A DNA stretch of 62,876 bases, counting the filler. It is 4 parts of 4 records of this genome, joined end to end, with 100 filler letters (N's around TTAATTAATTAA, not from the genome) between each part and the next. Parts side by side here need not be neighbours in the genome. Positions count along the whole stretch, not along the records: positions 33,489 to 57,681 come from SRR31156797_41657; 3 more parts are not named here. One strand, given 5' to 3'. Position 1 is the first letter of the stretch, and every line of letters begins with the position of its first letter. Of the stretch, positions 27,165 through 62,876 are shown piece after piece. Under the pieces are notes generated by a model. That model was not told where the DNA came from. It searched no databases and saw only the letters and a list, made by a program, of their open reading frames with translations. Both the position numbers and the translations under genes were made by a program.

Positions 27165-27170
27165 CTATTC

Positions 27171-27244: not shown

Positions 27245-27261
27245 TCATCCTAGCCACACCC

Positions 27262-31615: not shown

Positions 31616-31634
31616 AACTCGAAAGGAAAAGCGT

Positions 31635-33310: not shown

Positions 33311-33388
33311 CGCCGCTCGACATAACAGCGGAGCTTCGAGCCAATACGTATCCAGGCCGCGGCATCATGCTTGGCTGCAGCGAGGACG
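33307..33388 (+). CDS. IMP cyclohydrolase-like protein (PurO-type), N-terminus only
   Basis: ATGA overlap with purN and RBS AAGGAGG; reads MTPLDITAELRANTYPGRGIMLGCSED, containing the YPGRG motif of this family; truncated by the gap. Confidence 0.7.
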
Positions 33389-33488
33389 NNNNNNNNNNNN
33401 NNNNNNNNNNNNNNNNNNNNNNNNNNNNNNNNTTAATTAATTAANNNNNNNNNNNNNNNNNNNNNNNNNNNNNNNNNNNNNNNNNNNN
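33389..33488. other. Artificial contig junction
   Basis: N-run with TTAATTAATTAA linker. Confidence 0.97.
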
Positions 33489-41340: not shown

Positions 41341-41399
41341 AGAGTTATAACACTTGAGCATGACCTTACCACTCACCCCTTGAACTATAGAGGCGCCCT

Positions 41400-45192: not shown

Positions 45193-45243
45193 TCGTTTCA
45201 ACCACTTATCCAGTATCCCTGCCTGCAGGATAATGAAGGAGAA

Positions 45244-45269
45244 GAGCCATAAAAGTATTTATGGGGCTC
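45244..45269. terminator. Hairpin between convergent genes
   Basis: Imperfect stem GAGCCATAAA-AGTA-TTTATGGGGCTC. Confidence 0.4.
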
Positions 45270-45309
45270 TTATTATGTGATGAGCGTTTGTTACAATATC
45301 AACCTAGCA

Positions 45310-45750
45310 TCACAAACGGAAGCAGGCTTGAAACTGGTTGCTCTCATGTTCTCTTGAATAAGAACAAAAATCCGCCATGTGATTAACCAGAAAGATACCT
45401 AAACCACCAATCTGTCGCTTCTCCAAATCCGTGTCCAGAGATGGTGCCGGCTGCTCCAATGGATTGAAAGGCGGCCCCCAATCATGAAAGGTGACACAAA
45501 AAAACTGTTCTGAGTTGTTCGGACCTATCTCGTTACCACACCGGATTTCAACAAATGCTGTTTGTTTCGCTGCTTTGTCCTGACTATATTTTACAATATT
45601 GACAAACAGTTCTTCCACTACCAGCTCAAGCTTTATCTGGAGCACTTCCTGAGCGCCTGCCTTTTCCGCATGATACCGTACAAAGCCCTGAACCTCAGAC
45701 AGGTGAGCAATTGCAGCGGTAATACGAAACGATTCAGCAGGGGGTAACAT
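45310..45750 (-). CDS. Anti-sigma factor / Ser kinase (RsbW/SpoIIAB-like HATPase)
   Basis: EELFVNIVKYS, HDWGPPFNPL and RQIGGLGIFLV. Confidence 0.9.
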   Translation of the reverse strand: MLPPAESFRITAAIAHLSEVQGFVRYHAEKAGAQEVLQIKLELVVEELFVNIVKYSQDKAAKQTAFVEIRCGNEIGPNNSEQFFCVTFHDWGPPFNPLEQPAPSLDTDLEKRQIGGLGIFLVNHMADFCSYSREHESNQFQACFRL

Positions 45751-46079
45751 CAGGACTCGAAAGCCTCATCTCTTGTAGCTGTTACGCTGAACATCGAACC
45801 AAGGCCGGAGACCAGAAAAACCTCTTGGACCATTCCGTTCAACCCGCAAAACTGCATGGATCCCCCTGCTGCTTTTAACTTTTTGGCAGTAGAGAGTATA
45901 CTTCTTAGCCCGGCTGAACTGATATACTCAAGCTCGGAGAGGTCCACGACCAGCTTTTTTTCGGAACCGTTAATGACAAGCTGACAGTCTTTTTCAAAAG
46001 CTGCTGCAGTTACTGCGTCCAACCGACCACTTACCTTAAGCAAGGTTCCTGTCTCTCTTTTTTCGCACTCGATCTCCAT
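45750..46079 (-). CDS. STAS anti-anti-sigma factor (RsbV/SpoIIAA-like)
   Basis: GRLDA and VDLSELEYISSAGLR; start MEIECEK after RBS AGGAGAG; stop overlaps the anti-sigma start. Confidence 0.92.
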   Translation of the reverse strand: MEIECEKRETGTLLKVSGRLDAVTAAAFEKDCQLVINGSEKKLVVDLSELEYISSAGLRSILSTAKKLKAAGGSMQFCGLNGMVQEVFLVSGLGSMFSVTATRDEAFES

Positions 46080-46092
46080 CACGACTCTCCTC

Positions 46093-48027
46093 TTATTTAT
46101 TTTCTTTGCCAAGAAACTGTATGGCAAGCATAGTTATATCATCAGATTGTTCAGCGCCACCGGCAAATGTTTTAAGAGATGCGTTAATGGTACTGATAAA
46201 TGATTCTGCAGAAAGACCATTACACTCATTTATAATTTCAACCAATCGTTTCTCAGAGTAAAGTTGCTGATCGTTGTCCATGGCTTCTGTTACCCCATCA
46301 GTATAAACAAGCAGTGTATCACCTGGACGCATGTTCATTGATTGGGTCGTATAACTTGTCCCCTCCACTATTCCAGCCAAAAGCTCATTTAAGGGAGTAA
46401 TCCACTCTGCCTCACCGTTTGCAGGAAGAAGAAGCGGCGGACTATGTCCTGCACTGGCATAACGCACTTCCCCTGTACCAATATCGATCACCGCTAAAAA
46501 AAGCGTTACGAACATACAGGCTTCATTGTCTTCGGCCAATTCGTTATTGACTTTGGCAAGCACCTCACCCGGTTCAAGGCCCTGTTCTGCAACCACCTTA
46601 AGCAGGGTTTTGGTGACTGCCATAAAAAAAGCTGCCGGTACGCCCTTGCCCGACACATCTCCAACTACAAAACAAAACTGGTTTTCATCAATGAAGAAAA
46701 AATCGTAGAGATCGCCTCCGACCTCCCGCGCCGGTTCAATGGATGCGTAAATATCAAATTCGGTTCGATCGGGAAATGCAGGAAAGAGCTTGGGCAGAAT
46801 ACTCATCTGGATGTCATGGGCAATGCGAAGCTCAGACTCGATTCGCTCCTTAACTGCTGTTGTTTCTTTCAGGTTGGCAATGTAGTGCTGCAAGGATTCC
46901 CGCATTGTTGCAATTGAGGTCGCCAGTTCGCCAACTTCATCCTTAGACGAAATTTTGGGTAAATTTGCCTCCAGGTTGCCAGAAGAAATTTCATTTACAG
47001 ATGCGGTGAGACTCCTGAGCGGATGGGTAATTCTGCATGCAAGATAGATAAGCAGCAGTGCAAGAGCTGCAAAACCAAGCGCTCCAAAAAGAACTACTTC
47101 TCTAGTTAAACCTGCTACCTCAGCAAACAGTTCCTTTTTGGGAAAGACAACACCGATGGACCAATGCTGCTTAGGTAAAGCGGTAAAATATAAAAAGCTG
47201 TCTCCAGTTAGCGGCAGATTATCGAGTTCCACAACACCCGACTCCCCGGCAACCATCCGGCGGCCTATTTCTCGGATAAGTGGCTGCTCAAGGTTCTCTG
47301 CAGACGTAAAAACAGTTTCATTCATGACAATCTTTGTATCGGGATGAGCAATGTAGGTGCCGTAGCGAGACAACATGAAGACATACCCCATCTCGTTGAT
47401 GTTAATCACTGAGAGCATCTGCTGTATCCAGTCCAGAGAAATGTCTGCTGTGACAACCCCGGTAAGCAGCTCCTGCCTTTCATGCTTGCGGTAAAAGGGT
47501 ATTGAGTAGGTGGTCATTAACTGATGCCCTCCCCCTGTATCGTAGTAAGGTTCAGTCCAGACCGGTTTTTTTAACTCTCTTGCCAACTGGTACCAGTCCA
47601 TATAAAAATACTGATACTCAGGCCCCCCCAGGTTCGTAAACAGTGTTTCCTTTTGCCAACGATAATGATAGGGGGCGTAATACTTTTGTTCAAAACTAAA
47701 ACCGTGAGGTTCAAATGCTATGGCAGTGCCGAATATCTCTGGATTATGTAAAAGCACCTGTGCACCCAGATCATAAAGCCGCTTTTCAGTCAGGCTTCCG
47801 TCTTCCAGCGAAAATGCGACGGAACCAGCGACTTTTTCAACAGTATTAAGCACTGCAGTGATCCGCTCTGCTATTGATGCGGCCAAGAGCGTTCCGCGAT
47901 CCTCAGCAAGTTGTTCGATGATCCCTCTGGAGACGATGTAGTTATATACGACGATAACCGAAAAAATCAGGGTCGAGAAAACAAGAGTGAGTGACGCCAG
48001 TCGAAAAGCTATACCGTTAACTCTCAT
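46093..48027 (-). CDS. Membrane sensor phosphatase: Cache-HAMP-SpoIIE (PP2C)
   Basis: TM1; Cache (DWYQ...WTEPYYD...DISL); TM2; HAMP (DEVGEL); PP2C motifs EVGGDLYD, GDVSGKG, YTDGVTEA and SDDIT. Confidence 0.93.
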   Translation of the reverse strand: MRVNGIAFRLASLTLVFSTLIFSVIVVYNYIVSRGIIEQLAEDRGTLLAASIAERITAVLNTVEKVAGSVAFSLEDGSLTEKRLYDLGAQVLLHNPEIFGTAIAFEPHGFSFEQKYYAPYHYRWQKETLFTNLGGPEYQYFYMDWYQLARELKKPVWTEPYYDTGGGHQLMTTYSIPFYRKHERQELLTGVVTADISLDWIQQMLSVININEMGYVFMLSRYGTYIAHPDTKIVMNETVFTSAENLEQPLIREIGRRMVAGESGVVELDNLPLTGDSFLYFTALPKQHWSIGVVFPKKELFAEVAGLTREVVLFGALGFAALALLLIYLACRITHPLRSLTASVNEISSGNLEANLPKISSKDEVGELATSIATMRESLQHYIANLKETTAVKERIESELRIAHDIQMSILPKLFPAFPDRTEFDIYASIEPAREVGGDLYDFFFIDENQFCFVVGDVSGKGVPAAFFMAVTKTLLKVVAEQGLEPGEVLAKVNNELAEDNEACMFVTLFLAVIDIGTGEVRYASAGHSPPLLLPANGEAEWITPLNELLAGIVEGTSYTTQSMNMRPGDTLLVYTDGVTEAMDNDQQLYSEKRLVEIINECNGLSAESFISTINASLKTFAGGAEQSDDITMLAIQFLGKENK

Positions 48028-49034
48028 TGCAGGCGCCCTTTATAAAAATCTGGAAATGCTATTTTCGACTGCACGTTTTCAGTGAACTGAAGTGCTTGTT
48101 GTGTCCTGCTAAAATCAGCCTGCTTGAGTATGGTATCGATCTGGGTTTGCCCTTCCGGCACAAGGAGATCTTTCATCCGCTCTAGCATCCAGCTCTGATG
48201 CGCTCTGTTTGCCCTGACATTGCTCTCTTTCATAATACGAAGCATTGTATCAATGGTCTCCTCTGGATGGGCAAAGGCGTAGAGCCATCCTTTGGCAGAA
48301 GCCGTTACCAGCGCATTCGATGTCTCAGGGGATTTTGTATAAGTCGACTCCAAACAATAAATACCATCTTCCGGCAGATTCAGACCAAGATCACTGAAAA
48401 AAAAGATGGTCATTTCATCCTGATTTAATCCATACGACAGCAAGCGGTGATACTCATTGTACCACATGGCTAAAACCGCATCGAGGCCACCGCGCATGAA
48501 CAACTCAAACGATGGAGATTGACGAACAAGAGTCACGTTCAGGTTCTGACGTTTAAAAAGTGCCTTAGGTTGAAGACTAAAATCATCTCCCCAGGTGCCA
48601 ATTTTAGCACCATCAAGATCCTGAAGAGTAGTAATGTTGGAATCTTTACGGGCAATAAGCATCAGGGCGGAACGTTGTACAATCTGTCCAACATTGACAA
48701 GAGGAAGGTCTTGCAAGCGCAGCTGCAAGGCATCAGAGAGGAATGCAGTACAAAAAGCAGTTTTCCCCTGACCAAGCTTTTCACATGCATGTCTGTCTGC
48801 ATTCCCTGGAATAATCTCTACATCCAAGCCGTGCGCAGCATACATACCCTTTTCGCGGGCCATGTAGTAACCTGCAAATTGGGCCTGCGGATACCATTGC
48901 AGTGTGAGTTGAACTTTTTGCCTGGTTGCAGCAGCAAAAGAAGTGGTAGCAGCAATAAAAACAAAGAGAGTTACCAGCAGAGCATGCTTTTGCAGCGTAT
49001 GACCAAGTACAAAAAAATATCGATTCCTCAACAT
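48024..49034 (-). CDS. Periplasmic substrate-binding protein, NMT1/THI5-like
   Basis: Signal peptide; LQWYPQAQFAGYYMAREKGMY...GLDV, AMWYNE and KGWLYAF; no permease or ATPase adjacent. Confidence 0.88.
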   Translation of the reverse strand: MLRNRYFFVLGHTLQKHALLVTLFVFIAATTSFAAATRQKVQLTLQWYPQAQFAGYYMAREKGMYAAHGLDVEIIPGNADRHACEKLGQGKTAFCTAFLSDALQLRLQDLPLVNVGQIVQRSALMLIARKDSNITTLQDLDGAKIGTWGDDFSLQPKALFKRQNLNVTLVRQSPSFELFMRGGLDAVLAMWYNEYHRLLSYGLNQDEMTIFFFSDLGLNLPEDGIYCLESTYTKSPETSNALVTASAKGWLYAFAHPEETIDTMLRIMKESNVRANRAHQSWMLERMKDLLVPEGQTQIDTILKQADFSRTQQALQFTENVQSKIAFPDFYKGRLQ

Positions 49035-50413
49035 TTCGAAAAGTCCTTGATATACGCCTGCATTTTCTTTCCTCTGACAGCTCGCCGTGGTTCTGCTTCA
49101 ACGATGGAGAATGTAATATTTTCTATCCCATGATTAGCGAGCTGGTCAGTCACTGCTCCGGTAATTTGCTGTTTCACTGCACCAGAAAGAGCGTCTTCAA
49201 GATACTGCACACGCATGATTAACTCAGTGGAGCTAGGTTGAATGAATTGAAAAATGGAAATACCGGGGATATCACAGACCGCATTAAGGAATACGATGGG
49301 AGAAAGACGAACCAGCCCCTTGGGACCATCAAATGCTGGCATATCATCTGTTCTGCCCAAAATATCCACATAGGGAAAGGGAAGTCCACATCCACACTGT
49401 TCTTCATAGAGGATAACACAATCGTCCACACGGTATCGGATAATCGGCTGTACTGCATTCATCAAGTTTGTGACCAATATTGCATCGGACATGGTACCTG
49501 GGGAAACAGGGTTCCCTTCCTTGTCAATAGGTTCAACAATTATCCAATCGGAGTTTAAATGCATGTGGCCGTGATCACACAACAGTGAGATTTCTCCGCC
49601 CTCCGTGCTGCAGAACACATTTCCCACTGGACAGGAAAACCGTTTCTCTATCAGTAATCGCGTTTCATCTGTAAGCTGCTCAGCACTGCACAAAATAGCC
49701 TTTGGCTCGATATGCAGCCGACCCTGGTGTTGTTCGCCTGACAAAATCCGCAAAAAGGAAGGGTAGCCGGTTATCAATTCAGGTTGAAACTTGTTCAGTC
49801 TGCGAACCATTTCCTCAATGGGCTCACCGATGGATAACAGCTCCATGGTACCGGTGATGCCCTCCTCTTCCAATGCCACTCTTCTTTTTTCATAGGCACT
49901 GAATGCGGCATGATGGCCACCAGTAGCAAGGACACTGGCAAATTTGGTCTTTTTCTCCATTATTTCGGGAAAATCTTTAAGCAGAGGACTGTGGTACAGC
50001 CTGTCCAACATAATAGCGCCATTGATGTTGACATGACGGCTGTCGCGCAACATCCGCAGAGGCTCCCCAGTCGTGCCTGATGTGGTGGATACACTGTACT
50101 TATCCATAAAAAGGCTGCCCAACGTCCCCAGATCCTGAATGAATGCTGCAAGTTGTTCCTCAGAAAAATCCGGATCGGTTACCCAATCCTGCAAACAGGC
50201 AGTAAGCTCCTGCTTGGTAACAGCCGGTAATTTGTCAAGCGTCGGCTTTTCCGGTAGCCCTGCATACCTATTCCGATAAAACAAAGAATTTTCGCGGGCG
50301 TAAGTAACGATATCGTGCAAACGCTCCTGTTGCAGCTGAGCTATTTCATCACGGGACAGAAGGTCTGCTTGACGAACAAGTTCGACTGCTTTTTCCAAAG
50401 TTATGCTTCTCAT
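49028..50413 (-). CDS. Phenylacetate-CoA ligase / coenzyme F390 synthetase-like adenylate-forming enzyme
   Basis: SLFYR...LPAVTK, TTSGTTGEP, GYPS, CSAE, STEGG, PIIRY and GRTDD. Confidence 0.85.
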   Translation of the reverse strand: MRSITLEKAVELVRQADLLSRDEIAQLQQERLHDIVTYARENSLFYRNRYAGLPEKPTLDKLPAVTKQELTACLQDWVTDPDFSEEQLAAFIQDLGTLGSLFMDKYSVSTTSGTTGEPLRMLRDSRHVNINGAIMLDRLYHSPLLKDFPEIMEKKTKFASVLATGGHHAAFSAYEKRRVALEEEGITGTMELLSIGEPIEEMVRRLNKFQPELITGYPSFLRILSGEQHQGRLHIEPKAILCSAEQLTDETRLLIEKRFSCPVGNVFCSTEGGEISLLCDHGHMHLNSDWIIVEPIDKEGNPVSPGTMSDAILVTNLMNAVQPIIRYRVDDCVILYEEQCGCGLPFPYVDILGRTDDMPAFDGPKGLVRLSPIVFLNAVCDIPGISIFQFIQPSSTELIMRVQYLEDALSGAVKQQITGAVTDQLANHGIENITFSIVEAEPRRAVRGKKMQAYIKDFSKC

Positions 50414-50486: not shown

Positions 50487-52244
50487 TTACTTTCGATTAA
50501 AAGTGAGGGTATAGTTGTTGAAGCCTATTGTCTGGGAAAATCCAGGCTCATAGTTGCCATCGGCAGCCAGAACAAGACGCTGCTGATTATGCAAAGTTAT
50601 ATCTTTGTTATTGTCACGCAATGATGCCACAATCTTATCCTCATAGACATCCAGCATCATATCTATAGTGTTTCCTGTCATCTGGGGAAACGCACGTGTT
50701 ATCCCGCTCACTGTTTCTTCTATGGCAGCAACCACCTTCACTGCTATTTTATCTTCAACCCTAAGGTGTTCCATAAATACTGCAAACTGGTCCAGGCTTT
50801 TTGAGAGAGCCGAATCACTTGTTTTACAGGTCGTTTCAGACCTGCCGCATTGTTGCAGCTGTTCATGGTCGAGCAGCAAGGGGTTCCGGTATTTTTCAGG
50901 GTACGTCTTTTTCAGATAGAGGTAACAGGAAATGACCATGAGTATGGTGACCACTTCTGCCAGTGAAAAGGCAACCCAAACACCTGAAGCTCCTAAGGGG
51001 ATTGACATGGCAAGAGCAAGAGGAATAACAGATACCCCCTGAACAAATGAGATGGCTGCGGACAGTTTCGTGCGACCGATGGTCATGTAGTAGTACATAG
51101 AAAGGAAGCTGATACTGGTCCCCACCAAACTTAAAGAAAAAAGGCGGATGGCAGGAATACCTTCTGCTACATCTGCGGCATGGTGAATACCGAATATGTG
51201 CAAAATAACCCCAGGAAACAACTCCAACAGCAAGGTTGCAGCAAGGCTTGCAATCAAGAGTGTTTTTAATGCTCGCCGTACCACAAAATACACACCCTGA
51301 AAATCTGCTTCCCCATACAGGACCCCAACTATGGGGGTCATGGCCTGAGCTGCACCGGAAATAAACATAGAGACAAAAGAAAGGCAGGATAAACACACCG
51401 AAAAGGCTACCATGCCCGACTTACCAGCCACAGCCAGAATAATATGGTTAACAAAGAGAATCTTGAAAGTGATCAGGATGCTACCCATGGCTGCAGGGGA
51501 ACCTGTTGCCACAATCTTACTGACACGGGCCAATACCTCTGGCGCACGAATCAGCGTGTTCGGCTTAAACCGAAGCGTTCTTTTTCGACTAAAAACATAC
51601 AGCAGCAGAAAAGCCCCACCAATCACGTAACCGCACACCGTGGCAAGTGAAGAGCCTGCTATTCCCATTTTGAGCGGCCCCATAAAGACCAGGTCCAAAG
51701 CAAGATTAACCAGGTTGGAAACAATAAGGATGGTCGACGCCAATTTCACCCGTGCATCAACCCTTAAGCAATAGGCAAGCCCAGGAACGGTAATAATCAA
51801 GGGAGTGCCGTAGATGAGCACATGAACATAGGATTTAACCAGGGGGCGAAGGGAGGGCTCCCGAGTGAGTAGACGGGTGATATCATCAACAAAGACAACC
51901 TGTCCGGCCAACAAAAAGAGGCTCACCACAACCATAGCAAACAAAGCAGTGGTGAAAATATCACTTGCATAATCACTCTCTCTCCGTCCTTTGGCAACAG
52001 ATATCATGGTTGCAGCGCCCAACCCGAAACAGACAGCCATTGTATTGTAAAGCATAATAACAGGCATAACCAGATTGACTGCGGCAAGAGCTTCGGCACC
52101 CAGCATATTGCCGACAATGATACTGTCGACCACAATGGACATGGTCAGGGTCATCGCCATCAAAATGGTTGGGATAAAGAACTCCCAATATTTCTTATCC
52201 AGCAGGCCGCTCTGTCTGCTGGAGCTATAATTCATTGATTCCAT
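50487..52244 (-). CDS. MATE efflux transporter with a C-terminal degenerate HATPase (anti-sigma-like) extension
   Basis: VDSIIVGNMLG..ALAAV, NLALDLVFM..MGIAGSSLAT and GVWVAF; soluble tail of ~130 aa with AIEETVSGI and LRDN. Confidence 0.85.
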   Translation of the reverse strand: MESMNYSSSRQSGLLDKKYWEFFIPTILMAMTLTMSIVVDSIIVGNMLGAEALAAVNLVMPVIMLYNTMAVCFGLGAATMISVAKGRRESDYASDIFTTALFAMVVVSLFLLAGQVVFVDDITRLLTREPSLRPLVKSYVHVLIYGTPLIITVPGLAYCLRVDARVKLASTILIVSNLVNLALDLVFMGPLKMGIAGSSLATVCGYVIGGAFLLLYVFSRKRTLRFKPNTLIRAPEVLARVSKIVATGSPAAMGSILITFKILFVNHIILAVAGKSGMVAFSVCLSCLSFVSMFISGAAQAMTPIVGVLYGEADFQGVYFVVRRALKTLLIASLAATLLLELFPGVILHIFGIHHAADVAEGIPAIRLFSLSLVGTSISFLSMYYYMTIGRTKLSAAISFVQGVSVIPLALAMSIPLGASGVWVAFSLAEVVTILMVISCYLYLKKTYPEKYRNPLLLDHEQLQQCGRSETTCKTSDSALSKSLDQFAVFMEHLRVEDKIAVKVVAAIEETVSGITRAFPQMTGNTIDMMLDVYEDKIVASLRDNNKDITLHNQQRLVLAADGNYEPGFSQTIGFNNYTLTFNRK

Positions 52245-52281: not shown

Positions 52282-55200
52282 CTAGCCCGCCACAAAAAGA
52301 CGTTCTGCCTGGTCAGTCTTTATGTTGGCAAGCTTAAGCAGGGCCAGCCCCAGTTGAGGATGGCGAATGTTCAACTCACGGATGTCTTCAGGTTTAAGCT
52401 GAAAAACAAAGGTATCATCCAGTGATTCTACAGAGTTAATGGCATGTGTATCTTCAATCACCGCCTCTTCGCCCAGGCAGGAACCTGGTCCACCAACACG
52501 GATTGTACCAATCCAGCCGTTGGCATTATGACGATAGGTTTCCACCATCCCTTCAACAACAAAGCGAATACCGTCTACCGGTGCTTGCTCTTGCTGCAGC
52601 AGGGTTGTTTCGCCAAAATGCTCCGGCTTTATACGAGCTGCAATATCTGTTCGAGCTTCATCATCTAAAAGAGAGAATCCCGGGATGGCGGCAAGTTTTT
52701 GAGTTCGATCCTGTAACGCGTGCTGCACAAATAAGCGGAGATCTACGGGTTCGGGGTTTTTCCAGGTAAAACCGCACCGCTCCAAAAGGCTGGCTGTACG
52801 TTCAACCCTGATAACAGTACTCGTACTTAAAGGATTAGAAAGCCAATCCTGCCAGCCTAGATGGAGCAAGAGACGCTCAATGTACTCATCAAAACCGGGG
52901 CACCCTGCGTGTTCAGCAAAAAAATCGACAAAATCATCAAAGCGGAGTCTGTCTACCCGCAACCCGAGCTCTTTGGAGGACAGGGCTTCTGAAAGGGAGA
53001 GTAACTGTGGATTATGGATGTGAAAAGTTTGCCCTGCCAGCCCTGGTCTTGTCATGAGTGTGACAATCGCCTTTGCAGACTGGTCGACATAGGACATGTT
53101 GCGGACATCGGTGAGATCAGGAGCCACCCCAAGGTTCACATAGGCACGGATCTGCTGATAGAAGGCGTTATCATCTACATTACGTTGAAAAACGCCTGTT
53201 TCAGAATCGCAGGCAATATTACCGGCACGATATATATTCACCGGCAACCCTTCATCTCTCAATCTCTGTAAAACGACTTCAGCCTGCAGCTTGGAACGAA
53301 CGTACAAGTTGCGTGGTTCCTGTCCTATATCAACATCAAATTCGGTAAACAATGCTTGACTTCGCTCTTTTATTTTCCCAGAACCAATGGAGGTGGTGGA
53401 GATGTGATGTAACGATTTTGGTCTGCCCTTGCGGGCAAAAAAGGACAAATTCTCCACACTGGTAATGTTAGCTGCCACAAAAACGTCCCACTCTCCGTAG
53501 TGACTTGTTAAAGCCGCCGAGTGCAGAATGGTATCGACATCACATTCAAGTCGATCATATACAGCCTCATCCATTTCAAACCCTGGTACGGAAAGATCAC
53601 CGGTCAACACCTCTACCCGCCCGCCACTCTCTTCTTTTAAATTTCTACCGAATCGATCCTGATAATGGTCGGCCAAGCGTTGGTAGGCTGCCTTGTCGTC
53701 ATGACCACGTACAACAGCTGTTATATGTGCACCAGTATGATGGAGCAACTCGCGCAGCAGGTAGATGCCAAGGGTTCCTGTTCCACCAGTGAGCAGGACA
53801 TGGTCAAACGTTTTGACACTTTCAGCATCAAGCGCACCGTCGGCCTGACATGCCTGCCTATACCCCTGTACTTGCGACTGAAAAACTGCATCCTCTTTTG
53901 ACTTCCCGGAGAGTTTCTTTAGGCCAAGCAAGCGGGCTGAACGCCCTATCTCAGCCTCACGAAAATGGCTCGCCTGATCCGCAATGGTGGTGTGTGAAAA
54001 GAGATCAGAAGCTGAGATATCAAAGGTTTCACTCAGATCAGCTAACAGTGTAATGGCACTTAATGAATCACCACCAATATCATAGAAGGAATCAAACAAG
54101 CCAAACCCCTTATGACCTAGTACTCTCTCCCACGCCTGAGCGATACGAACCTCCTGTGGATTACGCGGCTCAAGGGGGCCTGTTGCGGAGGTGGTAATTT
54201 CAGGACGCGGCAGCTTGCCGCGATCAACCTTGCCGTTGGGATTCAGCGTCATCTTCTCCAGCTGTACAAAGTACGCTGGCACCATGTACTCCGGCAGCTC
54301 AGCCTTGAGCAATTCTTTCACCACCCCCATATCCAGCTTTGATGCGGCAGTACAGTATGCAGCCAGTGCCTTATTGCCGCTGGGTTCCTCCAAGGCAACG
54401 ACTACACAGTCGAGCACCTGATCGAAGGTCTTGATCTGTGCCTCAATCTCTCCTGGCTCGACCCGGTAGCCGCGAATCTTAACCTGAAAGTCCATTCGAC
54501 CGATAAAATCAAGAGTACCGTCATCCAGCCATTTCCCCTTATCACCGCTACGAAACATTCGTTGTCCCGGATGGAACGGATCGTCAACAAAATGTTTGTC
54601 TGTAAGTTCCTTACGGTTAAGGTATCCACGACCTACCTGGACGCCAGCTACGCAAATCTCTCCCGGTACCCCGATGGGACAAAGGTGCCCCTTAGCATCA
54701 AGAATGTATATCCTGGTATTCTTGACTGGCGAGCCCACAGGCGGCTTCATCATGACATCCTGTACATCGTAGCTCAGACAGGCCATGGTTGTTTCACTCG
54801 GCCCATATTCGTTGGTAAGCCTAAAATCCCCAAGGTGGTAAGATTTAAGTCTATCCCCCCCCACCACCAGATATTTGAGGGACTCCATTGAACACATCCG
54901 CATGAACTGTTCAGCAAACTGGGTTGGGAAATGAGCGTTGGTGATATGATTGTCCACAAAATAGGCATCCAGTTCCTTGGGAGAGCGACGCAGTTCTTCG
55001 GCAATGATGTGCAAGGTTGCCCCGGATACCAGCGGTGCAAATATCTGCACAACCGAGACATCAAAGCTGAAGGCTGCAAATGCTGCACAGCCAGATTCAG
55101 GCGAAATGCAGTGGTGCTCGGCATACCAGTCGATAAAGTTCACCATCGACTGATGTTCGATGAGCACCCCCTTGGGCTTGCCAGTTGAGCCAGAGGTGAA

Positions 55201-57681
55201 GATACAATATGCCAGAGCATCCCCCCCTTCTGCCAAATAAGGATTTGTATCATCACTTGGCAGATCGCCGTCCATGGCGACAGCTGCACAATCAAATTGT
55301 AATGCTTCCAATTGTTCCTGAGCACCTACAATACAGGGAGCATTGGTATCCTTTAAAATGAACGCCACACGTTCAGACGGATAATGGGCATCCAACCCTA
55401 CATACGCTGAGCCGGACTTTAACGCTGCTAACATTCCAACCACTGACCAAGTGGAGCGGTCTGCCACCACCGCCACAATACGATCTCTTCCCCCTCCCAA
55501 TTTTGCAATGCCCCTGGCTGCACGATTAGCAAGCCTATTTAGCTCTTCATAAGTAAGGCTGCCATTTTCTGCCTTGACTGCGATATGGTCGGGCCTGAGC
55601 TTGGCATGCGTTTCAATGACCTGACACACCGTTTTCCAAGAAGGCGGGGGAGTGGCAGGAGGGTTAAAACGATTGAGCAACGCGTTACGCTCCTCTGACC
55701 CGAGGATATTGATACTGCCCACGGCAATGTCCGGTGTTTTGGCAACGGCCTCAAGGACGGTGCAAAGGTGCCCTGTTAATCGGGCAATGGTTTGCCTGCG
55801 GTAGAGTGATGTCCTGTAATCCACCTCAATGATAAGTGTTTCACCCTGTTCTTCCGCAGCTATGGACAGATCGAACTTGGCAGTATCCGTATGCAAGGGA
55901 AGGACATCGGCGATCAACCCACTTACTTGATAATGATCCTCTGCTCCTATGTTGCGCATAACAAAGTTAATATCAAACATGGGATGTCTAACTGGCCCAC
56001 GGTTGGCCCCAAGATATTCGTAAAGGCTGGAAATCGGATACGAGCCATGTTCGTGAATCGCAAGCATCTGCTGTCGCATCTCAAGCAGCAGGTTGGCAAA
56101 GCTCTTGCTGCTTTCCGGGCGCACCCGTGTCGGTAAGGTGCGAACAAACATCCCTACTACTCCGGCGGTTCCTGCCTGATCGCGCCCACTCATACTTGTA
56201 CCGATACAGATATCCTCACTATCTGACCAGCGGCTAGCTAGAATGCCGATAGATGCCATAAAGATCTGATGCAGGGTTGCGCCATACTTCTTGGCCAGCT
56301 TTCGCAAAGCATCAGTTGCCTGGGCGTCAAGTTGGTGACGATAGACTGCACCTGCAAAATCCTGATGGCCGGGACGGGTAAAATCTGTTGGCAATTCGGC
56401 TTCAGGTGGTCCGGTGAAGAGCCCGCGCCAGAAAGATTCGTGCTTGATTTTAATCTGTTCCTCTCTAACTGCCTCCCAGACTGCCACATCCTTCTGCTGT
56501 ATTCGCAGCGATTCGAGCTGTTCTTGATTATAGAGCGCAAACAGTTCACGTAGATAAATACCAACGGATACACCATCAAAAACGATATGATGGAAGTCAA
56601 GGAGTAACCAGTGGCGTCCATCTGTATGGGCTACCAGCTTCGCCTTCATGAGAGGAGGATGCGACAGGTTAAAGGGTTGTGAAAAACCGACGGCAAACTT
56701 TTGTGGATCGTTACTGCTGGTTTGTTCATAATCTAGCTTGAGATGCGCGTTTTTTACCACGCGCTGTACGCACCGCCCCTCTTGAATGACAAAGGAGGTA
56801 CGTAGTGCCTCATGCCGCTCAAGCAACTCAAGCAGGGCGTCGGAAAGTCGCCTTTGATCCAGTTTGCCTGTAAAAGCGATGCATATCGGCATATTGTATG
56901 CCACCCCGATTCCCTTCATGCGGTTAAGTAAAAAAAGTTGCTGCTGGGACACGGAGGCAGGATAGGTTTCAGCCGCGTCTGCCGGTGATATTTTCTCATC
57001 AACATGTCCACTCTCAAGCCGAGAAGCCATAAGCCGGGGCGTAGAGCATTCAAAGATCGCAGCCAGTTCAACGTCACGACCAAGCTTTTTGCCAATGATA
57101 ACCTGCAAAACTACCGCACGAAGGGAGTCTCCCCCACTTTGGAAAAAATCAGCGTCAGCACTTACCTGATTTTTCTCCAGTACCTCACCCCATATTGCGC
57201 ACAAACTCGATTCCAATTCTGTTTCAGGAGCCGTATATTCCTGTTGATTCTCTTTCAGAGCTTTGGGTTCAGGTAATTCTTTTCGATCAATTTTGCCGCT
57301 TGGGTTTATGGGCATGGCATCGAGCCGCAGCATGTGGGAGGGCACCATAAACGATGGGATCCGACCGTCTAAACCAGCCAACACCTTTTCGGGCTCAGCA
57401 TCCCCGCAGATGTAGCCGCAAAGGTACACGTGGCCAGCTCTGTCTTTAAAATCTCCCACTGCGGCTTCTTTGACCCCGTCTATGGAAAGCATCGCATTTT
57501 CGATTTCGCCAAGTTCGATCCTATATCCACGCAATTTCACTTGTCGGTCTATCCGACCGAGGTGTCGGATCACACCATCCGGTCTCCAACAGGCAAGATC
57601 ACCGGTATGATACATGGTTTCTTGATGGTAAAACGGATCAGGCACAAAACACTCCGCATTTTTTTCTTCACGCTTATGGTA
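52282..57681 (-). CDS. Non-ribosomal peptide synthetase, 5'-truncated: (A)-T-C-A-T-R(thioester reductase)-cNMP-binding domain
   Basis: Frame is open to the gap (YHKREEKNAECFVPDPF...). A-domain end (YHTGD, VKLRGYRIELGE); T GGDSL (~57125); C HHIVFDG (~56580); A TSGSTGKPKG (~55185); T GGDSL (~54065); R TGGTGTLG (~53780) and YVRSK; CAP-type domain at the C-terminus. Confidence 0.93.
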   Translation of the reverse strand, partial: YHKREEKNAECFVPDPFYHQETMYHTGDLACWRPDGVIRHLGRIDRQVKLRGYRIELGEIENAMLSIDGVKEAAVGDFKDRAGHVYLCGYICGDAEPEKVLAGLDGRIPSFMVPSHMLRLDAMPINPSGKIDRKELPEPKALKENQQEYTAPETELESSLCAIWGEVLEKNQVSADADFFQSGGDSLRAVVLQVIIGKKLGRDVELAAIFECSTPRLMASRLESGHVDEKISPADAAETYPASVSQQQLFLLNRMKGIGVAYNMPICIAFTGKLDQRRLSDALLELLERHEALRTSFVIQEGRCVQRVVKNAHLKLDYEQTSSNDPQKFAVGFSQPFNLSHPPLMKAKLVAHTDGRHWLLLDFHHIVFDGVSVGIYLRELFALYNQEQLESLRIQQKDVAVWEAVREEQIKIKHESFWRGLFTGPPEAELPTDFTRPGHQDFAGAVYRHQLDAQATDALRKLAKKYGATLHQIFMASIGILASRWSDSEDICIGTSMSGRDQAGTAGVVGMFVRTLPTRVRPESSKSFANLLLEMRQQMLAIHEHGSYPISSLYEYLGANRGPVRHPMFDINFVMRNIGAEDHYQVSGLIADVLPLHTDTAKFDLSIAAEEQGETLIIEVDYRTSLYRRQTIARLTGHLCTVLEAVAKTPDIAVGSINILGSEERNALLNRFNPPATPPPSWKTVCQVIETHAKLRPDHIAVKAENGSLTYEELNRLANRAARGIAKLGGGRDRIVAVVADRSTWSVVGMLAALKSGSAYVGLDAHYPSERVAFILKDTNAPCIVGAQEQLEALQFDCAAVAMDGDLPSDDTNPYLAEGGDALAYCIFTSGSTGKPKGVLIEHQSMVNFIDWYAEHHCISPESGCAAFAAFSFDVSVVQIFAPLVSGATLHIIAEELRRSPKELDAYFVDNHITNAHFPTQFAEQFMRMCSMESLKYLVVGGDRLKSYHLGDFRLTNEYGPSETTMACLSYDVQDVMMKPPVGSPVKNTRIYILDAKGHLCPIGVPGEICVAGVQVGRGYLNRKELTDKHFVDDPFHPGQRMFRSGDKGKWLDDGTLDFIGRMDFQVKIRGYRVEPGEIEAQIKTFDQVLDCVVVALEEPSGNKALAAYCTAASKLDMGVVKELLKAELPEYMVPAYFVQLEKMTLNPNGKVDRGKLPRPEITTSATGPLEPRNPQEVRIAQAWERVLGHKGFGLFDSFYDIGGDSLSAITLLADLSETFDISASDLFSHTTIADQASHFREAEIGRSARLLGLKKLSGKSKEDAVFQSQVQGYRQACQADGALDAESVKTFDHVLLTGGTGTLGIYLLRELLHHTGAHITAVVRGHDDKAAYQRLADHYQDRFGRNLKEESGGRVEVLTGDLSVPGFEMDEAVYDRLECDVDTILHSAALTSHYGEWDVFVAANITSVENLSFFARKGRPKSLHHISTTSIGSGKIKERSQALFTEFDVDIGQEPRNLYVRSKLQAEVVLQRLRDEGLPVNIYRAGNIACDSETGVFQRNVDDNAFYQQIRAYVNLGVAPDLTDVRNMSYVDQSAKAIVTLMTRPGLAGQTFHIHNPQLLSLSEALSSKELGLRVDRLRFDDFVDFFAEHAGCPGFDEYIERLLLHLGWQDWLSNPLSTSTVIRVERTASLLERCGFTWKNPEPVDLRLFVQHALQDRTQKLAAIPGFSLLDDEARTDIAARIKPEHFGETTLLQQEQAPVDGIRFVVEGMVETYRHNANGWIGTIRVGGPGSCLGEEAVIEDTHAINSVESLDDTFVFQLKPEDIRELNIRHPQLGLALLKLANIKTDQAERLFVAG

Positions 57682-57781
57682 NNNNNNNNNNNNNNNNNNN
57701 NNNNNNNNNNNNNNNNNNNNNNNNNTTAATTAATTAANNNNNNNNNNNNNNNNNNNNNNNNNNNNNNNNNNNNNNNNNNNN
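57682..57781. other. Artificial contig junction
   Basis: N-run with TTAATTAATTAA linker. Confidence 0.97.
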
Positions 57782-57782
57782 G

Positions 57783-58472
57783 ACCGGCAGAATGAACCTG
57801 AGTTACGGCCATTATGCTTTTAACAGGGAATTTAGTGAGGATGGTTCTTTGGGATTTTTTGATATTTTGTACCTTACCGAAGATGAGTCCAAAGTAGACA
57901 ACCTCTCTTTTACCATTGGTGCGGAAGGCGCCTTGACCGAGAAAATTAATCTGGTAGCGGATTTTGGGGGGCGGTACTCCCAATCCCGGAGAGACATCAC
58001 ACAGACGGTTTCCTATTCGCCACCGTCCATCGACGGTTCCGTTTCACGTATCGATGCTACAAATGAAAACTATGGATTTGTGGGAAGTGCAACTTTCGGG
58101 CTTCAAGGTGAACACTCCCGGGCCAGCTTGTATCTATCCCACGACCTGCAGCCGGTGAGCGGCAACAATGCCACAGCCAATCGAACCACCATTCGAATCA
58201 ATGGACACGTTCAATTGATGGAAAAATTGTGGGCAAACGCTTCCCTCCAATGGTATTGGAATCTGAACGACTCCAACGATGTGACACAGGACAATATTGA
58301 TCGGCAGACATGGAACAGTGGTTGTGGTATTCGATGGGAAGTGAATCGCTTTCTTGACCTGGCGGCAAACTATACCTATACGATTTATGAGGATCATGAA
58401 GCCGGTAGCGTCAGCTATCGCAACAAAGTCGTCGTTCAGTTGGAGGCGCATCATGACTGGTTGGAAGAATAG
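57783..58472 (+). CDS. Outer-membrane beta-barrel protein of a polysaccharide export locus (5'-truncated)
   Basis: Alternating amphipathic beta-strands; frame open to the gap; directly upstream of a chain-length determinant. Confidence 0.7.
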   Translation, partial: TGRMNLSYGHYAFNREFSEDGSLGFFDILYLTEDESKVDNLSFTIGAEGALTEKINLVADFGGRYSQSRRDITQTVSYSPPSIDGSVSRIDATNENYGFVGSATFGLQGEHSRASLYLSHDLQPVSGNNATANRTTIRINGHVQLMEKLWANASLQWYWNLNDSNDVTQDNIDRQTWNSGCGIRWEVNRFLDLAANYTYTIYEDHEAGSVSYRNKVVVQLEAHHDWLEE

Positions 58473-58495
58473 ATAGAAAGGTACATCAACGAAAC

Positions 58496-60076
58496 ATGGA
58501 AGAGCAGCAAAACCTGGAAATCGGAACCTATGTCGATATCCTCAAACGGCGCAAGTGGTATCTGGTGGTTCCCGCTGTTGCGATTATACTGATCGCCGGG
58601 ACCGTCGCCATGCTTTTGCCGCCCACCTATAAATCTTCCGCCACGATTCTTATCGAAGAGCAAGAGATTCCTGCAGATTTTGTTATGAGCACGGTTACCG
58701 GATATGCCGAGCAGCGCATCCAAACCACCAAACAGCGTATCATGAGCACAAGCAAACTGCTGGAGGTGATCAATCAATTCAACCTGTACGCCAAGTATCG
58801 CAAAAAATGGACCACGGCGGAGATGGTGGACCAAATGCGTAAAGACATCCGTTTGGGGTTTATCAGCGCCGAGACCAAGGGGAGGGGGGGGCAGGCGGTT
58901 ACGGCCATGATCGCCTTCACACTTTCCTTTCAGGGAAGCAACCCAACCACCGTTCAACGGGTCACGGATACCCTGGTAACCCTGTTTTTAAGTGAAAACC
59001 TGAAGGTCCGACAACGCAAAACCACGGAAACCACGGAGTTTTTAGAAGATGAAGCTCGGCGGGTGAAGGGTCAGGCGGCGGTACTGGAGAAAAGGATATC
59101 CGAATTCAAAGAACAGAACATCAATATTCTTCCCGAAATGTTTACGGTGAACCAGCAGGTACTGAATTCCACCGAATCCGGATTGAAGCAGATTGACGAT
59201 CAGGTCCGAATGCTGAAAGAGCGGGAAGGTTATCTGGTAACACAGCTTGCCAGTATACCGGAGATCGAAGATCCGGATAAACAGCGCCTCAAGAATCTGG
59301 AACTGGAGCTGGTGAATCTGAAAAGTCGATTTACCGACAATTATCCGGATGTCAAGAAGGTTGTATGGGAAATCGAACTGATCAGGCAAAAAATCGAGGA
59401 TAAAAAGTCACAGAAAAAATCCAAAGAGGATCGGCCGGACAATACCGCCTATATTACATTGGCATCCCAGTTGTCCAGCACGCGTGCCGAGATCGAGTCT
59501 TTGCTGGAGCAGGAATTAGATATGAAGATCAAAGCGGACAGCTATCGGCAACGGATCGAGGAAACACCTAAAATCGAACAGGAATACAATGATCTTTTGA
59601 TCGACCGCAACAGCACCCGGGCCAAATATTCGGATTTAATGCGCAAGGTGATGGAGGCCAATGTGGCTTTGGGGTTGGAAAAGGAGCAAAAAGGGGAGCG
59701 GTTCACCCTGATCGATCCGGCACGGCGGCCCGAAAAGCCCTTCAAACCCAATCGGCTGGCCCTTTTTGTGGTTGGCATTGTTTTGGGGGGAGCGGCCGGT
59801 TTGGGGATGGTCGTTTTAAGAGAATTTCTTGATCAATCTGTCTATTCGCCGCAGCACCTGGTCCGTATTACCCCGCTTCCGCTTCTGGTTACCGTACCGG
59901 TTATTACAACACCTTATGAGAAACGAGCACACCGCTTGAAAACTATCTCTTTTACAGCTGTCGGCATGATACTAATATTATTGAGTATCTATGTGTTCCA
60001 CAGTCAAGTGATGGATTTAGATATTTTTTGGGCTAAATTGACGCGGAAGATAGAGAAAACTGTTCCACCGATGTGA
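58496..60076 (+). CDS. Polysaccharide co-polymerase / chain-length determinant (GumC/Wzz-like)
   Basis: ILKRRKW + TM, YKSSATIL, long coiled coil, YPDV, IDPARRPEKPFKPNR + TM. Confidence 0.9.
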   Translation: MEEQQNLEIGTYVDILKRRKWYLVVPAVAIILIAGTVAMLLPPTYKSSATILIEEQEIPADFVMSTVTGYAEQRIQTTKQRIMSTSKLLEVINQFNLYAKYRKKWTTAEMVDQMRKDIRLGFISAETKGRGGQAVTAMIAFTLSFQGSNPTTVQRVTDTLVTLFLSENLKVRQRKTTETTEFLEDEARRVKGQAAVLEKRISEFKEQNINILPEMFTVNQQVLNSTESGLKQIDDQVRMLKEREGYLVTQLASIPEIEDPDKQRLKNLELELVNLKSRFTDNYPDVKKVVWEIELIRQKIEDKKSQKKSKEDRPDNTAYITLASQLSSTRAEIESLLEQELDMKIKADSYRQRIEETPKIEQEYNDLLIDRNSTRAKYSDLMRKVMEANVALGLEKEQKGERFTLIDPARRPEKPFKPNRLALFVVGIVLGGAAGLGMVVLREFLDQSVYSPQHLVRITPLPLLVTVPVITTPYEKRAHRLKTISFTAVGMILILLSIYVFHSQVMDLDIFWAKLTRKIEKTVPPM

Positions 60077-60135
60077 TCGACAGGTCGTAGGACTAAAGTA
60101 GGCGTTTCGCCCTATTTAGGTAGGAGTAAACATAA

Positions 60136-61017
60136 ATGATGTCTTTCATGCAGCGATTGGGTCAAACCAAAGGCCCAATGAAACTGAAAAGAATGCTGGA
60201 CCAGACGAAGAACGCATGGATAACCCGCAGCAGATCTCGTGAAATCCCAACGATCGAGTACCACCCTATCCGTAGAAAGAAATCCGGGTCCACCTGGTTG
60301 TCTCCGATATACTCCGAGTCCCAAACCGTTGCCGTTGATATGAAAATGGCGGTGAAAAACAAATGCATTGCCCTATCGCCGGAGTTTGCGGAGGTGGAGT
60401 ACTACAAAATGCTGCGGACACAGCTAAAACAAATCAGGCAAGAGATGAACTGGAATACCCTTATGGTGACAAGTGTCTCTCCAGGAGATGGCAAAACGGT
60501 AACAGCCGTTAATCTGGCGGCGACATTTTCCAGAGAGTATAACCAGACCGTTCTTTTGGTCGACGCCGATTTACGGATGCAATCCATTCATCGATACCTG
60601 GGATACACCTGTCCTGTCGGATTAGGAGACTATCTGGAAGAGAAGGCTTCCATTGCCGATATCATTATGTGGCCGGCAATCGAAAAAATGACCCTTATCT
60701 CCGGGGGACGCCCCATTGAAGAGAGTGCCGAGTTGATGGGATCCCCACGCATGCAGGATCTGGTGACGGAACTGAAGTCTCGTTACGAAGACCGGTATAT
60801 CATTTTTGACACCCCGCCCATGCTCAAAGGTGCGGATGCGCTCGCCTTTGCTCCCTTTGTCGACAGTATTTTAGTTGTTGTCGGCTCGGGCGTTACAAAG
60901 CATCAGGACTTGGAACAGGCACTGGACTTGCTGCCTCAGGAAAAAATCGTAGGTCTCGTTCTGAATCAGTTCAATGGCGCAACCCAAATTGTCGGGGGGT
61001 ATGGGTATCGAAGGTAG
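60136..61017 (+). CDS. BY-kinase (CpsD/CapB-type polysaccharide tyrosine autokinase)
   Basis: EYYKMLRT, Walker A SPGDGKT, LVDADLR, IFDTPP, VLN and C-terminal GGYGY. Confidence 0.9.
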   Translation: MMSFMQRLGQTKGPMKLKRMLDQTKNAWITRSRSREIPTIEYHPIRRKKSGSTWLSPIYSESQTVAVDMKMAVKNKCIALSPEFAEVEYYKMLRTQLKQIRQEMNWNTLMVTSVSPGDGKTVTAVNLAATFSREYNQTVLLVDADLRMQSIHRYLGYTCPVGLGDYLEEKASIADIIMWPAIEKMTLISGGRPIEESAELMGSPRMQDLVTELKSRYEDRYIIFDTPPMLKGADALAFAPFVDSILVVVGSGVTKHQDLEQALDLLPQEKIVGLVLNQFNGATQIVGGYGYRR

Positions 61018-61246
61018 TACTTGTCCGGAGATGGCCAATTTGTCAGAGCTTTATGTTACGATTATATTTTTTTCCTCGGTTTTTCAACCCCATGCCCCCC
61101 AAGGGCCACATCCTTCGGGGCGCCTGCCGTAAAATTTTTCGTGCGCCTTAACTGACAAAAAAAGTTACTATTTCCGGGCGAAAACGAATTTGTGTAAAAA
61201 CGAATGTGTGGGCTTTTGCTGCCCCCCACTCCGTTGGAAATGATAT

Positions 61247-61292
61247 AAAAAGCCCTACTCTTGGATCTTACGGTCCAAGAGTAGGGCTTTTT
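61247..61292. terminator. Bidirectional intrinsic terminator
   Basis: Perfect 19-bp inverted repeat AAAAAGCCCTACTCTTGGA / TCCAAGAGTAGGGCTTTTT with an 8-nt loop, between convergent genes. Confidence 0.8.
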
Positions 61293-61410
61293 CATTTTAT
61301 AGCGCATTTTTCAAATTGTCTGCGTTCAGCGGTTGGTCGGGTCTGTTTTTCTATGAGATCGATGGAATACGTTTCCTTAACACTTTTGATGATCTATGCT
61401 GAAAACGGCG

Positions 61411-62862: not shown

Positions 62863-62876
62863 TGATGCGATAACAG

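Follow-up and report, generated by a model that had tools for sequence, protein, structure and literature searches.

A conserved CRP-type domain behind the terminal reductase of a nonribosomal peptide synthetase

A stretch of 62,876 nucleotides of DNA (the window) carries on its minus strand part of a gene for a nonribosomal peptide synthetase (NRPS), the product of which ends in a thioester reductase (R) domain that is followed by a domain of the cyclic-nucleotide-binding (CNB) type. The window consists of four pieces (1-26470, 26571-33388, 33489-57681 and 57782-62876), and the three identical joints between them (26471-26570, 33389-33488 and 57682-57781) each read 44 N, TTAATTAATTAA and again 44 N. 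Genes at the joints are cut, and genes that face each other over a joint are not genomic neighbours: the NRPS gene is cut at 57681, the open reading frame (ORF) for a Radical_SAM_N protein from 26515 takes its ATG inside the linker, and the genes for an outer-membrane barrel, Wzz and a tyrosine-kinase-like ATPase beyond 57782 lie on another contig. The NRPS ORF is listed at 52282..57645 (minus strand, 1787 amino acids), and its translation terminates in the peptide quoted in a preliminary description of this DNA. The gene is incomplete in the window: upstream of the listed GTG, the frame continues uninterrupted (..YHKREEKNAECFVPDPF, read by eye) to base 57681, where the run of N begins. Since no stop codon interrupts the frame before the N/TTAATTAATTAA linker, the 5' cut results from the contig joint and not from biology, and a biological truncation with a start within the adenylation (A) domain is ruled out. 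The plus-strand frame at 52282-52700 is riddled with stop codons.

According to the ORF and the Pfam matches, the partial gene (52282..57681, on the minus strand as are all of its features) comprises 1799 codons plus the stop and encodes the end of a first A domain, a carrier (T) domain, a condensation (C) domain, a second A domain, a second T domain, R and CNB. The C-terminal part of the first A domain (57292..57681; AMP-binding_C, residues 47-118) runs off the contig end. It is followed by carrier domain 1 (57019..57204; PF00550 PP-binding, residues 148-209), the condensation domain (55675..56973; PF00668, 347 bits, residues 225-657), the core of adenylation domain 2 (54619..55614; PF00501, 227.6 bits, residues 678-1009) and, approximately at 53962..54168, carrier domain 2, a second PP-binding stretch with the GGDSL serine motif around residue 1191. 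The terminal thioester reductase occupies 52696..53838 (residues 1270-1650), and a hidden Markov model (HMM) of our own for the family places the CRP/FNR-type CNB domain with its C-helix at 52285..52689 (residues 1653-1787). The interval given for the domain in the preliminary description, 52282..52700, does hold it, but the strand and the exact span had to be corrected.

The identity of this domain is supported by its sequence and by its predicted structure. The Pfam family PF00027 (cNMP_binding) matches residues 1677-1758 of the 1787-residue product with 38.7 bits and the 172-residue tail alone with 43.1 bits (E 4.2e-11); as the gathering cut-off is 27.5 bits, the profile check that had been proposed earlier came out positive. 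A sequence search of the PDB returned CNB proteins among the top matches (best 2pqq_A, E 5.6e-5; 32 matches at E <= 1). The AlphaFold2 model of the last 162 residues, calculated from a 56-row alignment, has a mean predicted local distance difference test score (pLDDT) of 94.6, and DSSP assigns to it a helix at 37-46, strands between 48 and 125 with a short helix among them, and helices at 127-136 and 138-161, i. e. the beta-barrel with N-terminal helix, B/C helices and short cassette helix that make up the CNB fold. In the searches with Foldseek and VIA-align, the effector domains of CRP/FNR regulators ranked at the top, followed by FNR, E. coli CAP and the domains of PKG and PKA: model residues 21-162 lie on residues 3-144 of the GlxR chain 3r6s_A (Z 20.0, root-mean-square deviation (rmsd) 2.0 A over 142 residues; Foldseek template modelling (TM) score 0.78), and Mycobacterium tuberculosis CRP (4a2u_H) reaches Z 19.4. 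A helix-turn-helix (HTH) after the C-helix is absent: the stop codon follows directly upon the helix, the Pfam scan gave no HTH family, and the last residue of the model, 162, pairs with GlxR residue 144 of 225. In the model, the NRPS tail is thus an effector domain with a C-helix that ends where the hinge and the DNA-binding domain of CRP start. The claim of the preliminary description that a CAP/Crp-type domain is fused behind the R domain of an NRPS is therefore borne out by both the profile match and the fold. The best NCBIfam match of the tail was NF041163, the Family 2B encapsulin (E 5.7e-7); its 29 bits are far under the cut-off of 400, and the CNB part alone matches. The shell proteins of this family carry an inserted cNMP-binding domain and are thus an example of the CNB fold in a non-signalling protein.

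The likeness to the effector domains of CRP/FNR regulators (GlxR, 3r6s; M. tuberculosis CRP, 4a2u and 3i54; E. coli CAP; FNR; Streptomyces coelicolor 2pqq) extends over the whole fold including the long C-helix, with Z values of 18-20 and rmsd values of 2.0-2.4 for 125-144 aligned residues, and the sequences are detectably related, as the PDB match to 2pqq_A demonstrates. However, the NRPS domain differs from them: its fusion partner is an enzyme, at whose C-terminus it sits, and no HTH follows it; moreover, it has no cassette Arg, and it possesses a GWxGT hairpin specific to its clade together with an acidic cassette.

The latter differences became apparent when the pockets of 86 distinct R-linked CNB domains were compared, in one HMM alignment, to those of 248 others drawn from the same lists of hits (pocket residues are numbered as in the product of the NRPS ORF of the window). 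In CNB domains that bind cyclic nucleotides, the cassette Glu touches the ribose 2'-OH, and the cassette Arg neutralises the cyclic phosphate. The altered phosphate-binding cassette of the window (52426..52473) reads G-E-E-A-V-I-E-D-T-H-A-I-N-S-V-E from G1725 to E1740, and the HMMER alignment sets H-A-I-N-S opposite P-R-T-A-T of 2pqq, so that Ala1735 faces the cassette Arg and Ile1736 the Ser/Thr that follows it. The Gly at 1725 is nearly universal both in the R-linked domains (83/86) and in the others (238/248), and the Glu at 1726 is present in 56 of the 86 versus 214 of the 248. At 1727, the second position after the Gly, 69 of the 86 R-linked domains have an acidic residue (E 58, D 11), whereas the other domains are mainly hydrophobic here (M 102, I 25, V 23). 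No R-linked domain has Arg at 1735 (A 45, S 30), as compared to 123 of the 248 other domains, which serve as a positive control for this column, and thus the loss of the Arg is a property of the clade rather than a slip of the alignment. At 1736, the R-linked domains carry I (21), S (20), P (11) or G (10) and the others S (78) or T (54); at 1740, Glu is found in 75 of the 86, and the most frequent residue of the others is Arg (81/248). Finally, the GWxGT motif in the beta4-beta5 hairpin (52504..52518, residues 1710-1714) marks the R-linked domains: its Trp1711 is invariant (86/86, versus 15/248), and G1710, G1713 and T1714 are found in 85, 84 and 80 of the 86, respectively. The statement of the preliminary description that the Gly-Glu is retained and the Arg lost thus holds for the window, and the loss of the Arg extends to the whole family.

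Judging from these residues, canonical cAMP or cGMP binding by the CNB domain is unlikely, and a ligand other than cAMP, as anticipated in the preliminary description, would be expected given the missing Arg. A true cyclic-nucleotide sensor that binds cAMP, cGMP or another such nucleotide in a non-canonical manner and gates product release would agree with the fold and the membership in PF00027 and with the Gly-Glu, which is kept in the window (G1725-E1726) and in 23 of the 24 members of the near family; moreover, R1705, which is basic in 75 of the 86 R-linked domains, might in principle stand in for the lost Arg, and one of the best structural matches of the tail (Z 19.0) is a CNB domain that binds cUMP (8jsk_A). 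We nevertheless consider this improbable: the phosphate-contacting Arg is missing from every R-linked domain, and in the window, Ile takes the place of the Ser/Thr behind it. The acidic residue at 1727 and the exchange of the frequent Arg for Glu at 1740 also render the cassette more acidic, and a phosphate should be bound less readily as a result. Moreover, no cyclase was found among the genes scanned beside the NRPS in the window or in the related loci L001-L003. The link between assembly-line output and second-messenger status that had been suggested earlier is therefore unlikely. The acidic, arginine-free cassette rather suggests an uncharged or a cationic ligand; a nucleoside-like compound, a precursor or the product of the pathway are guesses as to its nature.

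That a pocket of this kind can work with another ligand is shown, by analogy, by the regulatory subunits of kinetoplastid protein kinase A (PKAR), in which the Arg has disappeared, the cassette has acquired a Glu, and nucleosides are bound with nanomolar affinity (PMC10959531). The proteins of Trypanosoma brucei and T. cruzi (6flo, 6hyi, 6ftf; Foldseek TM 0.75 for 6hyi) share the Arg-free, acidic cassette with the NRPS domain; however, their Glu replaces the Ala of G-E-L-A-L, whereas the NRPS has G-E-E-A, i. e. A1728 is kept in the window and the acidic residue stands at 1727. Since the acidic residue is located one position earlier in the NRPS, the analogy is loose. A capping aromatic residue or an alphaD helix was not identified in the NRPS CNB domain.

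The reductase to which the domain is attached matches Pfam NAD_binding_4 at residues 1285-1527 with 146.8 bits. The glycine-rich TGxTGxLG motif (T1286, G1287, G1290, G1293) and T1417, Y1448 and K1452, which we take to be the catalytic triad, are conserved in both CNB-linked and CNB-free R domains. The R part of the model matches the R domain of MxaA (4u7w_A) with Z 35.8 and rmsd 4.1 over 357 residues, the archaeal T-R didomain 6vtz_A with Z 35.1 and the R domain of AusA (4f6l_B) with Z 33.4; in Foldseek, the E values of the R part range from 1e-23 to 1e-17 (best 1.3e-23). Altogether, the R domains of MxaA (4u7w/4w4t), the archaeal protein (6vtj/6vtz), the aureusimine synthetase AusA (4f6c/4f6l) and M. 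tuberculosis (4dqv) are matched with Z 30-36, and their NADPH motif and Thr/Tyr/Lys positions are kept in the NRPS studied here. These conserved positions indicate a catalytically intact terminal thioester reductase. In contrast to the CNB-containing clade with its tail of 156-159 residues, the best-matching R chains are 370-473 residues long and have no space for a domain of about 135 residues after the match, and the titles of the best matches mention no extra domain.

The best model of R together with CNB (518 residues) has a pLDDT of 85 and a predicted TM score of 0.84. In this model, DSSP places the last R helix at 364-383 and the first CNB helix at 393-402, with a link of nine residues between them. 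Fold searches with the 518-residue model returned R and short-chain dehydrogenase/reductase (SDR) matches only, and the CNB domain was recognised when folded alone. Of the five models of the R-cNMP didomain, the prediction of which had been suggested earlier, two reached a pLDDT of 85 and three scored 64-71. On the side of the reductase, the ERLLLHLGW segment (E1590, H1595, G1597, W1598) was considered as an interface motif and rejected: it occurs in CNB-free neighbours as well and is therefore a mark of the clade and not evidence of a contact.

The R-CNB ending is not a peculiarity of this one gene. With the last 198 residues as the query, 32 protein clusters with 46-92% identity were found, nearly all of them with a length of about 2594 amino acids, and PF07993 and PF00027 are both present in 32/32 of these close relatives; the full-length relatives scanned with Pfam have the order C-A-T-C-A-T-R-CNB in 4/4 cases, with CNB above the cut-off in all four. 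The source names include Desulforhopalus sp. 52FAK, Maridesulfovibrio sp. and, as metagenome-assembled genomes (MAG), Desulfocapsa sulfexigens, Desulfotalea, 'Desulfovibrio sp.' and Thermodesulfobacteriota. The gene is sporadic, since a 372-residue query of R end and CNB found 4 matches at E <= 1e-20 in 401 sampled genomes of Thermodesulfobacteriota: three covered the whole query (two of which had been in the comparison set before) and one the R part only. When the last 192 residues were searched with phmmer against 1.84 billion representatives at 50% identity, 465 hits were obtained at E <= 1e-3; among the best 150 of these 465, which were scanned for their architecture with HMMs from our own alignments, 45 have R followed by a C-terminal CNB domain. 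Twenty-eight of the 45 are at least 1000 residues long, and the other 17 begin within or just before R, as would gene fragments at contig ends. The architecture search for NAD_binding_4 and cNMP_binding in NRPSs that had been proposed as a check was successful, too: all 16 long representatives that were checked by Pfam have NAD_binding_4 and then a C-terminal cNMP_binding domain above the cut-off (16/16). These proteins have about 1,080 to 4,895 amino acids (some are cut N-terminally) and one to four adenylation-domain hits, and the named sources of such distant R-CNB NRPSs include Syntrophomonas, a Clostridia bacterium and Candidatus Eremiobacterota.

In the literature outside subscription journals, a search that combined NRPS and cyclic-nucleotide-binding terms gave no description of an R-CNB NRPS. 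R-CNB is thus a widespread and apparently undescribed NRPS ending, and the conserved CRP-like accessory domain on a reductase-terminated NRPS is new with respect to the literature searched. A search for shorter proteins showed no stand-alone CNB proteins of this clade, a question that short proteins from contig ends cannot settle: among the seven hits, four have R or NRPS parts, one may be half of a split gene, and two are pieces of 64-91 amino acids. One protein, P0043 (515 amino acids), has ATP-grasp_2 at 3-200 and then the C-terminal subdomain of R with an R-type CNB domain; it arose either by natural recombination or as a chimera of the assembly. Moreover, P0208 (2266 amino acids) is an NRPS that stops in the middle of R, and P0257 (319 amino acids) has CNB as its only precomputed Pfam hit. 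Both come from contigs of 16,422 bp and may represent the gene of one relative split inside R; if so, either the gene is broken or frameshifted or the sequence contains an error.

R and CNB behave like a single unit of inheritance, and the CNB-linked R domains are more closely related to one another than to other R domains. When the R domain served as the query, 81 hits were obtained at E <= 1e-20, of which the best 42 all have the CNB domain (40 according to precomputed Pfam, two according to our own HMM) and the remaining 39 all lack it, two of these ending inside R; the tail after R has a constant length of 156-159 amino acids in each of the 42. For the CNB domains, a tree of 105 rows was calculated that comprised 51 R-linked domains, 7 short high-scoring sequences that are probably fragments, and, by taking every second one, 47 of the 94 other CNB domains (multi-domain proteins being represented by their best-scoring domain only). 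All the other, non-NRPS domains are located on one side of a branch with a Shimodaira-Hasegawa-like approximate likelihood ratio test (SH-aLRT) support of 99, and the R-linked ones make up a single clade. In the R tree (46 rows with and 35 without CNB, four CNB-free rows with incomplete R having been dropped), all CNB-containing rows are in one clade (support 99) together with 7 CNB-free rows, and the label requires three changes. Repeated losses of CNB are not claimed, because the approximately unbiased (AU) test does not reject a single CNB-containing clade (p-AU 0.567; the constrained tree is 5.7 log-likelihood units better). These trees are read most simply as a single fusion, with R and CNB passed on together ever since.

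In the near family, the mean pairwise identity is 0.59 for CNB, 0.66-0.68 for R and 0.62 for the upstream C-A-T-C-A-T part. For 126 core codons of CNB compared to five loci, the proportion of nonsynonymous differences (pN) is 0.18-0.40, and that of synonymous differences (pS) is 0.72-0.81, which is near saturation; the dN/dS ratio could be computed in three comparisons and is 0.09-0.18, a rough figure since dS exceeds 2.4. The conservation of the CNB domain is thus about equal to that of the catalytic domains, and these comparisons support the view that it is a working accessory domain. One may ask, however, whether the domain is a relic, i. e. an old fusion in decay, or an artefact caused by the assembly or by a missed stop codon. 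The existence of some close R relatives without CNB and the possible split of P0208/P0257 would fit such a view, which is already contradicted by the available evidence and thus highly improbable: the window and eight related loci from independent assemblies all have an uninterrupted frame, the fusion is present in all 32 relatives, pN is far below pS, the identity of the domain is close to that of the upstream modules, and the fold is predicted with a pLDDT of 94.6. The CNB domain is real, ancient, conserved and continuous with R.

The end of the protein gives rise to another idea. In CRP/FNR regulators, the C-helix mediates dimerisation, and the NRPS domain may likewise, together with its C-helix, dimerise the terminus of the NRPS whether or not a ligand is present, in which case the changes in the pocket would reflect the loss of ligand binding. 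The C-helix of the window (52285..52359, residues 1763-1787), as defined by the DSSP assignment of the model, the structural alignment and the conservation, carries a hydrophobic stripe and aligns with the C-helices of GlxR, M. tuberculosis CRP and FNR up to their hinge. Positions 1770, 1773, 1777, 1780 and 1784, at a spacing of 3-4, are hydrophobic in a fraction of 0.66-0.99 of the 86 R-linked domains, L1783 and V1785 are so in all of them, the protein ends two residues later, and the final residues, ERLFVA, are among the best conserved ones of the domain. The stripe could equally pack on the beta-barrel or on R, though, and NRPS modules work largely as monomers. Self-association alone would not account for the acidic cassette, conserved as it is, or for the GWxGT hairpin with its invariant Trp. 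It is the main rival of the reading that we prefer (see below), but the less likely of the two.

The genes next to the NRPS might point to a partner of a different kind. The gene of a MATE efflux transporter (50487..52244, minus strand, 585 amino acids) starts 37 nt downstream of the NRPS stop codon, and its residues 446-585 form a hydrophilic C-terminal extension of about 140 amino acids that matched no Pfam family and may be a cytoplasmic regulatory or docking domain. It is followed by a PaaK/F390-synthetase-like adenylate-forming enzyme (49028..50413, minus strand, 461 amino acids), for which the NCBIfam matches are below their cut-offs and Pfam gave no hit above the cut-off. Further downstream, the minus strand encodes an NMT1-like binding protein, a dCache-HAMP-SpoIIE phosphatase, a STAS protein and an RsbW-like kinase. 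In eight related loci, a long MATE homologue adjoins the NRPS six times and a homologue of the PaaK-like ligase four times, twice next to an NRPS whose identity is just about 50%; the NMT1, SpoIIE and STAS genes accompany the NRPS only in the two closest loci. The window is syntenic with the Desulfocapsa MAG locus L004 and therefore probably stems from a sulfate-reducer-like bacterium related to Desulfocapsa or Desulforhopalus. As the exporter and the ligase recur and the other genes are restricted to the two closest loci, the cassette likely consists of NRPS, ligase and exporter, and the partner-switching set is probably outside of it. This set (phosphatase, STAS protein and RsbW-like kinase on the minus strand) and a PAS-PAS-GGDEF-EAL protein on the opposite strand beside it occupy 43006-48027.

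A two-module NRPS ending in R resembles the dipeptide-aldehyde synthetases. In full-length relatives, the first module opens with a C domain that carries the consensus HHIxxDG; because of this initial C domain and the adjoining ligase, the predicted product is, based on general knowledge of NRPSs, an N-acylated dipeptidyl aldehyde or alcohol, with the PaaK-like ligase probably supplying the acyl starter. The recurrent neighbours also raise the idea that the CNB domain is a docking domain that recruits a pathway partner, such as the MATE tail or the PaaK-like ligase, and thus would couple release to export or priming. The long MATE protein with its hydrophilic tail adjoins the NRPS in the window and in 6/8 related loci and the ligase in 4/8, which agrees with this idea; yet the long MATE is missing from two of the eight loci, L001 and L002, whose NRPSs do have the CNB ending, and adjacency is the sole tie of the MATE tail to the CNB domain. 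Such a docking function is unlikely.

Elsewhere in the window, a gene on the minus strand (27262-28407) encodes a protein of 381 residues in which a histidine-phosphatase domain (His_Phos_1) is fused to one of the GNAT acetyltransferase type. On the plus strand, 39505-42629 encodes a B12-binding radical SAM protein of 611 amino acids and then an MFS transporter, and upstream of the radical SAM gene, the minus strand carries genes for a GntR/FCD regulator, an arylsulfotransferase-like protein and a TctC/TctA transporter.

The reading that we prefer, with a probability of roughly 0.4, is that the CNB domain caps the reductase as a built-in allosteric element and senses a ligand other than a cyclic nucleotide. 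Given the short link of nine residues between the last helix of R and the first helix of CNB, a movement of the CNB helices could reach the C-terminal subdomain of R: a ligand would drive this movement, as is the case in PKA, Epac, CRP or MtPat, and it would be passed on to the subdomain, which handles the carrier-bound substrate. In this way, the enzyme could be made to release its dipeptidyl aldehyde or alcohol, which is probably N-acylated, or be kept from doing so. The closest precedent for the mechanism is the lysine acetyltransferase MtPat (Rv0998; MsPat, MSMEG_5458), in which the fused CNB domain autoinhibits the enzyme until cAMP binds (PMC8556138). MtPat and the NRPS are both bacterial enzymes to which a CNB domain is covalently fused, and the allosteric control of MtPat is what we would propose, by analogy, for the NRPS. 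However, the CNB domain of MtPat is N-terminal and binds cAMP with high affinity, whereas that of the NRPS is C-terminal, is attached to an SDR-type reductase and lacks the Arg. It is tempting to speculate that R-CNB is a ligand-gated release module in which an ancient CRP-type sensor has swapped cyclic nucleotides for another small molecule and turns the terminal reductase of many NRPSs on or off; this more specific proposal is possible but tentative.

Several observations weigh against a ligand-gated cap. The cassette Glu is kept in merely 56 of the 86 R-linked domains, and a single common ligand of the ribose type is therefore doubtful. The extra Glu of the NRPS is one position earlier than in the ribose-binding cassette of the kinetoplastid proteins. 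Moreover, close R relatives without CNB do exist (P0206, P0209-P0214), so R can exist as a domain without CNB. Only two of the five R-CNB models reached a pLDDT of 85, the other three being at 64-71, and LHxGW on the side of R is also found in the CNB-free P0211 and P0213, with LHQLW in P0212 and a partial version in P0210. Overall, our work confirms the observation made in the preliminary description, and its interpretation is partly supported: the fold, the loss of the Arg and the conservation hold, but the link to second messengers is unlikely, the fusion is widespread, and gating and ligand are inferred only.

The domain would add to the CNB domains that have departed from cyclic nucleotides, alongside the kinetoplastid PKA regulatory subunits. 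PF00027 is listed among the families of transcription factors in a method paper (PMC10663231), and genome-mining tools that use PF00027 as a marker of a separate regulator could mis-annotate R-CNB synthetases. The module is compact, with about 135 residues after R, and was apparently acquired once; it is found on NRPSs of varied size, from about 2,000 to 4,900 amino acids. The output of NRPSs is usually seen as governed by transcription and substrate supply; with a sensor fold on the release domain, the last chemical step would come under post-translational control as well. If it is indeed ligand-gated, this would be, to our knowledge, the first described case of allosteric control by a small molecule within an NRPS termination domain, and, if true, it would provide a portable switch for engineered and other reductase-terminated assembly lines.

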